Below are positions 45,559 through 46,448 of a DNA stretch of 64,000 nt, piece after piece. Origin of the DNA: Macrostomum lignano (Eukaryota); assembly GCA_002269645.1 (NCBI GenBank), contig NIVC01000528.1, forward strand, positions 124,001 to 188,000. The letters are read 5' to 3'. The notes below the pieces were generated by a model. It saw only the letters and a list, made by a program, of their open reading frames with translations, had not been told where the DNA came from and did no database searches. Made by a program: the position numbers and the translations under genes. Numbering within the stretch: position 1 is the first letter of the stretch; every line of letters starts with the position of its first letter.

Positions 45559-46448
45559 GTTAATTGCAAATCATAAAATAATTGGACAAATATGAAACTG
45601 CAAAAATAGTGTGTGATTACTATTAATAGTAGTAATAATTGTTCTCATAAATAGTCTGTTTAAATACTCTTTAAAGTGAATATTAACGTCCCTGTTCGGG
45701 CGCCATGTCGAGAAAAAATACTAAATTAAAGACTAGAGAGTTACTTGGAGTTAAATTGAATCTAAGATAAGCGAGTAAGTGGGCGCAGGGCCCAAACAAG
45801 TATATTTATACCAGACATTAACTTAGGGGGTTTGAATTGCAGATAATAAAGAGAGAGGTGGAGTGCACGACTAAATAGAGAGGCGAGAATGGAGAACCAA
45901 TCAGAAGGCAGCAAGGGAGAGAGAGATAAGAATAACAAGATTGAGCTAGACACAGAGAGAGAGAGAAAACAGTAAACAGAGACAAGTGAAGGTGAACTAA
46001 AGAAAGAAACTTTCCTAGTCATTTCTTTAGTTCACCTTCACTTGTCTCTGTTTACTGTTTTCTCTCTCTCTGTGTCTAGCTCAATCTTGTTATTTTTATC
46101 TCTCTCTCCCTTGCTGCCTTCTGATTGGTTCTCCATTCTCGCCTCTCTATTTAGTCATGCACTCCACCCCCTCTCTTTATTATCTGCAATTCAAACCCCC
46201 TAAGTTAATGTCTGGTATAAATATACTTGTTTGGGCCCTGCGCCCACTTACTGGCTTATCTTAGATTCAATTTAACTCCAAGTAACTCTCTAGTCTTTAA
46301 TTTAGTATTTTTTCTCGACAGTTAATTGCAAATCATAAAATAATTGGACAAATATGAAACTGCAAAAATAGTGTGTGATTACTATTAATAGTAGTAATCA
46401 TTGTTCTCATAAATAGTCTGTTTAAATATTCTTTAAAGTGAATATTAA
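45559..46448. mobile_element. 128-bp direct repeats (45559-45686, 46321-46448) flanking an 18-nt tRNA-Lys 3' end (45688-45705) and a 615-bp palindrome (arms 45706-46005 and 46022-46320)
   Basis: Arms are reverse complements with a few substitutions and indels; direct repeats match at 126/128; GTCCCTGTTCGGGCGCCA equals the 3' 18 nt of tRNA-Lys(UUU) including CCA. Confidence 0.88.

Follow-up and report, generated by a model that had tools for sequence, protein, structure and literature searches.

As a rule, intermediates of reverse transcription come to light only in vitro or in cells under drug treatment. Long palindromes without coding sequence are familiar from MITEs and foldback DNA transposons. 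Several described insertions of retroviral and retrotransposon cDNA come closer to the locus analyzed here.

When HIV or ASLV integrase inserts just a single viral DNA end, the host inserts the other, producing duplications that can run to hundreds or thousands of bases; viral DNA may be joined to the aberrant end in either orientation (PMC5041404). These cases were induced by drugs, mutant ends or mutant integrase in cultured cells, and they involved whole proviruses. HIV inserts derived from tRNA-Lys3 arise through aberrant second-strand transfer, in which an LTR that carries the copied 3′ end of the primer tRNA behind it, with a stop at m1A58, is joined at the wrong site; these HIV cases read beyond nt 18 and jump to downstream viral DNA (PMC8599865; PMC12657518). 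Finally, Tf1 and HIV cDNA that keeps a single-stranded primer-site tail can use it for integrase-independent joining, a route that for Tf1 needs target homology and mostly yields tandem direct elements (PMC11042837).

The insertion described here lies in the window, a 64,000-nucleotide stretch of Macrostomum lignano DNA. Its component parts (a strong-stop end at m1A58, tRNA inserts, primer-site tails and one-ended integration) are known, but we did not find their combination in one natural insertion, nor any description of a palindromic insertion of a single LTR plus tRNA, in the open-access literature. The features of the locus are as follows.

44585..44857, minus strand: open reading frame with the first coding exon (PX domain) of a sorting nexin-17 gene, ATG at 44857
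45559..45686, plus strand: target duplication, copy 1, 128 bp of AT-rich host DNA
45687, minus strand: extra base, G on this strand, fitting neither tRNA A58 nor the host continuation
45688..45705, minus strand: tRNA tail, the 18-nt complement of the mature tRNA-Lys(TTT) 3′ end (nt 59-76, CCA included), directly after the LTR CA
45706..46005, minus strand: left arm (300 nt), LTR nt 21 to end, with LTR sense on the minus strand, towards SNX17
45803-45810: TATA-like box in the left arm
46006..46008, plus strand: GAA insert at the fold point, where TTTC is doubled on the minus strand
46009..46320, plus strand: right arm including its unpaired part, LTR nt 8 to end, of which 46022-46320 (299 nt) is paired
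46009-46021, plus strand: unpaired part of the right arm, LTR nt 8-20
46124-46128, plus strand: ATTGG, with a mirror copy in the left arm
46216-46223, plus strand: TATAAATA motif, with a mirror copy in the left arm
46320, plus strand: right arm terminus, a perfect ...CTCGACA end with 1-nt microhomology (A) to the target
46321..46448, plus strand: target duplication, copy 2, 128 bp

As in one-ended integrations of HIV-1 and ASLV, one LTR end of this locus is normal and the other aberrant, the host duplication is long rather than 5 bp, and there is extra element sequence of the kind that can lie in either orientation in the viral cases (PMC5041404). However, it is a natural insertion, it consists of a single LTR and its complement, and it keeps a tRNA copy. 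It shares with the HIV tRNA inserts an LTR followed by a misplaced copy of the primer-tRNA 3′ end, but here copying ended at 18, the join is to host DNA, and there is a fold-back at the U3 end. A primer-site tail is likewise common to the locus and the Tf1 route. Unlike that route, the empty-site sequence, which is AT-rich, contains no primer-site homology, and the result is an inverted structure with a 128-bp duplication; homology of the target to either the primer site or the polypurine tract, which would mark a Rad52-type insertion as in Tf1, was not found. The resemblance to MITEs and foldback DNA transposons ends with the palindrome itself: the insertion is single-copy, has LTR arms and a one-sided tRNA tail, and is flanked by a 128-bp duplication.

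The overall order is a 128-bp repeat, one C, the 18-mer, a 300-nt arm, 16 nt, a 299-nt arm and the second 128-bp repeat. The palindrome measures 615 bp, and its minus strand opens with TGTCGAG and closes with CTCGACA. These coordinates and ends reproduce the original prediction, made from the letters alone, of a palindrome between 128-bp direct repeats, and the CCAAT-like and TATAAATA motifs it placed in the arms are present in both. Between the arms there are 4 substitutions and 2 indels, and the minus strand has a folding energy of -356 kcal/mol (z = -67 against 20 shuffles). The predicted 16-nt loop was correct as a distance between the arms but not as a spacer: 13 of its 16 bases are LTR nt 8-20, leaving GAA at 46006-46008 as the sole addition relative to a solo LTR. 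The fold therefore sits at the 5′ (U3) end of the LTR, and an arm amounts to nearly the whole 319-bp LTR. TTTC, single in the parent, is doubled at the join, likely by one early polymerase slip. A canonical element or solo LTR would have direct LTRs, or one LTR, within a 4-6-bp duplication; here the LTRs are inverted and the duplication is 128 bp. Read on the minus strand, the order is the complement of U5..U3, the fold, U3..U5 and the tRNA 18-mer. This is what self-primed minus-strand cDNA copied back into its attached primer should give.

Searching the genome with an arm returned 1030 candidates, of which 40 were scored, and a 21-nt LTR marker had 266 exact genome matches. At 30 loci with flanks, a polypurine tract is followed by a TG..CA LTR and then directly by the TGGCGCCC primer site. 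A solo LTR (G000:C616) is 319 bp long with a 5-bp duplication, and two-LTR copies enclose a repetitive interior of ~1.0-1.2 kb (obtained in three of the four examined). We scored target duplications in 63 stretches from the first 100 of the 266 marker places, excluding L137, L138, L139, L141, L142 and the window. They were exact 5-bp duplications in 47 and had one mismatch in 2; 7 stretches lacked an intact 5′ end, which counts against the reading we prefer below, 2 began at the polypurine tract, 1 had a 5′ LTR only, and 4 were of other kinds. One related element (L142) is coding, with 369-bp LTRs, the same termini and a 5-bp duplication. Its 1829-aa frame has Pfam matches to DUF1759, Peptidase_A17, reverse transcriptase and integrase, the last ~105 nt of its LTR are common to the arms, and it shares U5 and the primer site with the family.

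These dispersed TG..CA direct repeats, with their primer site, polypurine tract and short target duplications, bear out the predicted LTR origin of the arms, including the Lys primer site. The parent is an abundant noncoding LTR family with a BEL/Pao coding partner, and we infer that this partner mobilizes the family in trans. The parent resembles nonautonomous LTR elements of the TRIM or LARD types, here with a BEL/Pao helper: like these it has TG..CA LTRs of ~320 bp, a primer site, a polypurine tract and a noncoding interior, and it forms tandem arrays and 5-bp duplications. The copy in the window, in contrast, has no interior, polypurine tract or 5-bp duplication, and its LTRs are inverted, not direct.

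Both arms appear to come from one parent. At the four sites where they differ, the variant letter occurs in 0, 0, 1 and 0 of 40 other copies, and because these substitutions are private or nearly so, a single parent is indicated. Each arm is 2 substitutions away from the solo LTR at G000:C616. As predicted, the arms (4/298) and the repeats (2/128) have diverged to a similar degree, fitting a single event.

We then considered the 18-mer behind the left arm, which had been identified as the tRNA-Lys(UUU) primer-binding site. It matches the mature end of the genome's own tRNA-Lys(TTT) plus CCA. Two genes for this tRNA (L126 and L127) finish with the 18-mer's first 15 nt and do not encode CCA, so the 18-mer corresponds to nt 59-76 of the mature tRNA. 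From base composition, its chance expectation in 764 Mb is 0.02. Across 42 distinct contexts of LTR ends and primer sites, the match to tRNA-Lys spans 10-14 nt in 27, 15-17 nt in none and 18 nt in 15, although the 18-nt contexts were deliberately sought and the 27:15 ratio is not a frequency. Nucleotides 14-18 of the tail fit the tRNA, yet they are absent from every ordinary primer site of the family. Because those sites match only 10-14 nt, the 18-nt tail points to reverse transcription of the attached primer tRNA rather than to a genomic primer site. The locus thus has the arrangement expected of plus-strand strong-stop DNA, an LTR and then exactly 18 nt of mature primer tRNA. That m1A58 sets this limit is assumed here from human tRNA-Lys3 (PMC8599865). 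The extra G at 45687 was likely either untemplated or misincorporated at m1A58.

The Lys(TTT) 18-mer has 59 genome matches, all of which we inspected: 53 lie in two LTR families other than this one, and the remaining 6 sit against a CA end. Self-comparison for inverted repeats at 35 of the 59 was positive in the window only. At three matches (L047, L059 and L069), primer sites run past tRNA-Lys(TTT) position 58 towards the anticodon arm; in the L059 family this extended site is shortened in many copies. The Lys(CTT) 18-mer has 17 matches, 14 of them after an LTR of the window family; in 11 of these a fresh U5 tail follows, representing six distinct events. Such LTRs, lengthened by an 18-nt tRNA-Lys copy and a new U5 that is often from another subfamily (L100-L108, L113 and L116/L086), occur on contigs G000:C73, C200, C302, C401, C891 and C3216. 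Several have normal 5-bp duplications, and C3216 has undergone two rounds of lengthening with two different tRNA-Lys ends. A candidate second tRNA-tail insertion with a 67-bp target duplication (L050/L132, G000:C449:257131) was rejected. There, the 18-mer stands behind a 5′ LTR end and leads into a T run and then a second copy of the last 67 nt; the arrangement is a U5 duplication inside a BEL/Pao element.

The flanking repeats were predicted to be a target duplication, for which an empty site with a single 128-bp copy would be the test. Two sister loci of 92-93% identity (L032 and L033, on C3333 and C907) are uninterrupted across the site, holding a single 128-bp copy and lacking the LTR, which identifies the repeat in the window as a target duplication. 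Its copies differ at 2 of 128 positions (45637 A versus 46399 C, and 45667 C versus 46429 T), and across these two sites each copy departs once from the sister loci. The repeat becomes 129 bp if the A at 45558/46320 is included. At the right junction, the perfect CA end has 1 nt of microhomology, while the left junction contains one extra base. The original prediction set the 128 bp against the short duplications made by integrases. It is indeed not a normal 5-bp duplication, but the argument does not extend to integrase itself, given the perfect CA end and the precedent of one-ended integration in HIV and ASLV (PMC5041404).

Other aberrant insertions occur in the family. L138/L139 (G000:C48 and C323; L138 3235-5932) shows the same one-ended pattern as the window: a head-to-head arrangement within an exact 80-bp duplication, with one perfect CA end and the other end truncated with a 6-nt templated insert. 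It joins the 3′ halves of two LTR subfamilies (96% and 84% identical to the window LTR), demonstrating that two-template products occur in the family. We found no empty allele of the L138 site, whose flank is a repeat with relatives at ~80%. At L109/L135 (G000:C517:270251), one LTR and the tRNA-Lys(CTT) 18-mer are joined directly to a host minisatellite, and the TG end is perfect; the next 4 bases match both tRNA nt 58-55 and the target. L178 contains a 7-nt fold-back on the LTR terminal palindrome at the U3 start, with a perfect CA end and no 5-bp duplication. In a search for the fold-back pattern, this 7-nt form was found at four copies of that one locus (L178/L203, L204, L206 and L208), along with 2 unrelated matches. 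Counting the window, all four aberrant insertions keep exactly one perfect LTR terminus. Retention of 18 nt of tRNA and misjoined ends are thus recurrent in the family as read from its genomic copies, and the full palindrome is unique among the places screened.

Taken together, we conclude, with a probability of about one half, that the insertion is the fossil of a snap-back reverse-transcription intermediate, joined by integrase at one end and repaired in by the host at the other. The snapped-back intermediate that had been predicted is retained as the simplest source, since the minus-strand order matches it exactly. A minus strand primed by tRNA-Lys(UUU) would have run through U5-R-U3 and stopped or broken at LTR nt 8. 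To judge from the junction, its 3′ end would then have folded back at nt 21, slipped once to leave TTTC twice, and copied its own strand. Synthesis would have entered the attached primer and halted after 18 nt at m1A58, an end-point visible in the sequence, yielding a hairpin with a 19-nt 3′ tail. Once opened, the hairpin would become a linear palindrome, blunt at one end (the U5 CA) and tRNA-tailed at the other, where the tail itself is a full primer site. The CA end would have been joined cleanly at 46320/46321 and the tailed end repaired in 128 bp away, duplicating the intervening stretch. The arms and duplicates have since gained private mutations (4 substitutions per ~298 nt and 2/128).

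Integrase likely joined the CA end, judging from its form, although a clean end is also compatible with end-joining. RNase H also leaves a precise minus-strand 5′ end, so the clean junction, which carries 1 nt of microhomology, is no proof of integrase. Two further points count against this reading: nothing was found that would halt synthesis at nt 8, and the natural sequence forms no strong hairpin where the fold lies (-0.4 kcal/mol for a strand ending at nt 8). Snap-back of minus-strand strong-stop DNA at the transcript start was considered and is unlikely: the U3 start is where the fold sits, but the CCAAT/TATA layout suggests a transcript start at ~nt 245.

In the main idea of the original prediction, break repair by the host would account for the whole capture of the same snap-back hairpin, with no role for integrase: the 3′ tail and the 5′ end would be joined across a 128-bp staggered break, and fill-in would open the hairpin. 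For the window alone this accounts for the data equally well. It requires no second-strand step, it suits the 1-nt microhomology at one end and the extra base at the other, and Tf1 and HIV cDNAs with a retained primer-site tail do insert without integrase (PMC11042837). Yet the target offers no primer-site homology of the kind used in the Tf1 pathway, and repair alone does not predict the perfect LTR terminus found in four of four aberrant insertions. We therefore consider capture by repair alone rather unlikely.

Another possibility dispenses with an in-particle hairpin. Plus-strand strong-stop DNA would have been copied from its tRNA tail as far as nt 21, with a switch to a minus strand at nt 8, either by a repair polymerase or through end-joining of two cDNAs from the same parent. 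The head-to-head join of two subfamily templates at L138/L139 lends this some credit. Slippage-type inserts are also typical of polymerase-theta joins, and the window has such an insert. However, the scheme calls for breaks in two molecules, 13 nt from each other and close to the U3 start, whereas the arms derive from one parent and a small fold-back exists at the same LTR end elsewhere (L178). These requirements make it improbable.

The inversion or the duplication might also be an artefact of assembly or of chimeric reads. Read support was drawn from contigs of four runs, among the matches listed. An X12 contig (45638-45741) crosses the junction of repeat, tRNA and LTR with 49 and 55 letters on either side, and an X13 contig (45601-45735) crosses it with 86 and 49, neither with conflicting letters. 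Another X13 contig starts exactly at 45558, as expected of a branch from the right junction. X12 and X13 belong to the same study, possibly the assembly's own source, and no contig among the matches listed spans the loop, leaving the loop junction unconfirmed in reads. Against an artefact, however, stand not only these contigs but also the private differences in arms and repeats and the colinearity of both flanks with the sister loci, and we regard it as very unlikely. In X2 and X15, 45648-45703 has zero cover between covered flanks; an empty allele and graph simplification could each produce this. At 45637/46399, the X12 contig at the left junction ends one base before 45637. Breaks in the adjoining contigs suggest that in this sample copy 1 of the repeat bears the letter of copy 2, a possible sign of conversion or recombination between the repeats.

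The original prediction also allowed for an undescribed tRNA-primed palindromic nonautonomous element, and a tail that is a perfect primer site and two U5 ends would suit a self-propagating family of this kind. That idea is now abandoned as extremely improbable. A genome-wide screen of inner-junction patterns, covering fold points at the U3 start, gave one place, the window, for gaps of 0-30 and none for gaps of 31-60. No second tailed LTR end was found genome-wide, and the window copy lacks a 5-bp duplication. No other copy of the whole palindrome was seen among the first 100 of the 266 marker places; there, marker pairs on opposite strands within 5 kb occur in the window and on C48 and C323, which hold one unrelated event present twice. 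Inversion of a resident LTR element in place by replication template switching, without a reverse-transcriptase step, could draw on the genomic copies that have an 18-nt tRNA copy behind an LTR end, but it is scarcely credible given sister loci without the element, no remaining internal region or polypurine tract, no donor with the same end and an exact nt-18 stop that would be a coincidence. The insertion in the window is likely a one-off accident and not a new mobile element.

The locus neighbors a gene. The PX exon best matches sorting nexin-17 (E 6.6e-25, compared to 3.6e-6 for SNX27), and the copy of this exon in sister locus L098 is 97.8% identical. Its ATG lies 849 bp from the palindrome, in agreement with the ~850 bp estimated earlier, and ~950 bp from the TATA-like box of the left arm on the same strand. 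If active, the left arm would be a predicted LTR promoter facing SNX17. Both predicted LTR promoters point outward, so forming a 300-bp dsRNA requires read-through from the flanks. A 43-bp minisatellite directly behind the SNX17 exon and a 31-bp minisatellite upstream of the ATG (43214-44590 and 45005-45187) were also observed; the upstream block is ~4 kb longer in L098. Farther along, 47896-48285 is a nested, MITE-like inverted repeat (91-nt arms at 85% and 44-nt arms at 75%).

A broader account of the family is conceivable, although we hold it only tentatively. Because its primer sites are shorter than the 18 nt that reverse transcriptase copies from the tRNA, strong-stop DNA of this BEL/Pao-partnered family may regularly fail second strand transfer. 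Several products would then recur: LTRs lengthened by a tRNA 18-mer and a new U5, single LTRs with a tRNA tail, fold-backs at U3, and insertions in head-to-head arrangement whose duplications measure 80-128 bp. In the window, snap-back would have gone to completion, and re-priming on the molecule's own tRNA tail would have produced a substrate with two U5 ends.

The locus appears to preserve a nearly intact intermediate, whose primer copy ends at the expected modified base and for which empty sister loci are available. Together with the other aberrant copies of the family, it suggests that one-ended insertion with long duplications, as in the HIV and ASLV experiments, also occurs naturally in an invertebrate LTR family. 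The locus itself is a possible source of long hairpins and of an LTR promoter facing one SNX17 copy. If the broader account is true, LTR cDNA would have a natural route in an animal germ line by which it gives rise to long palindromes and to tandem duplications next to genes.
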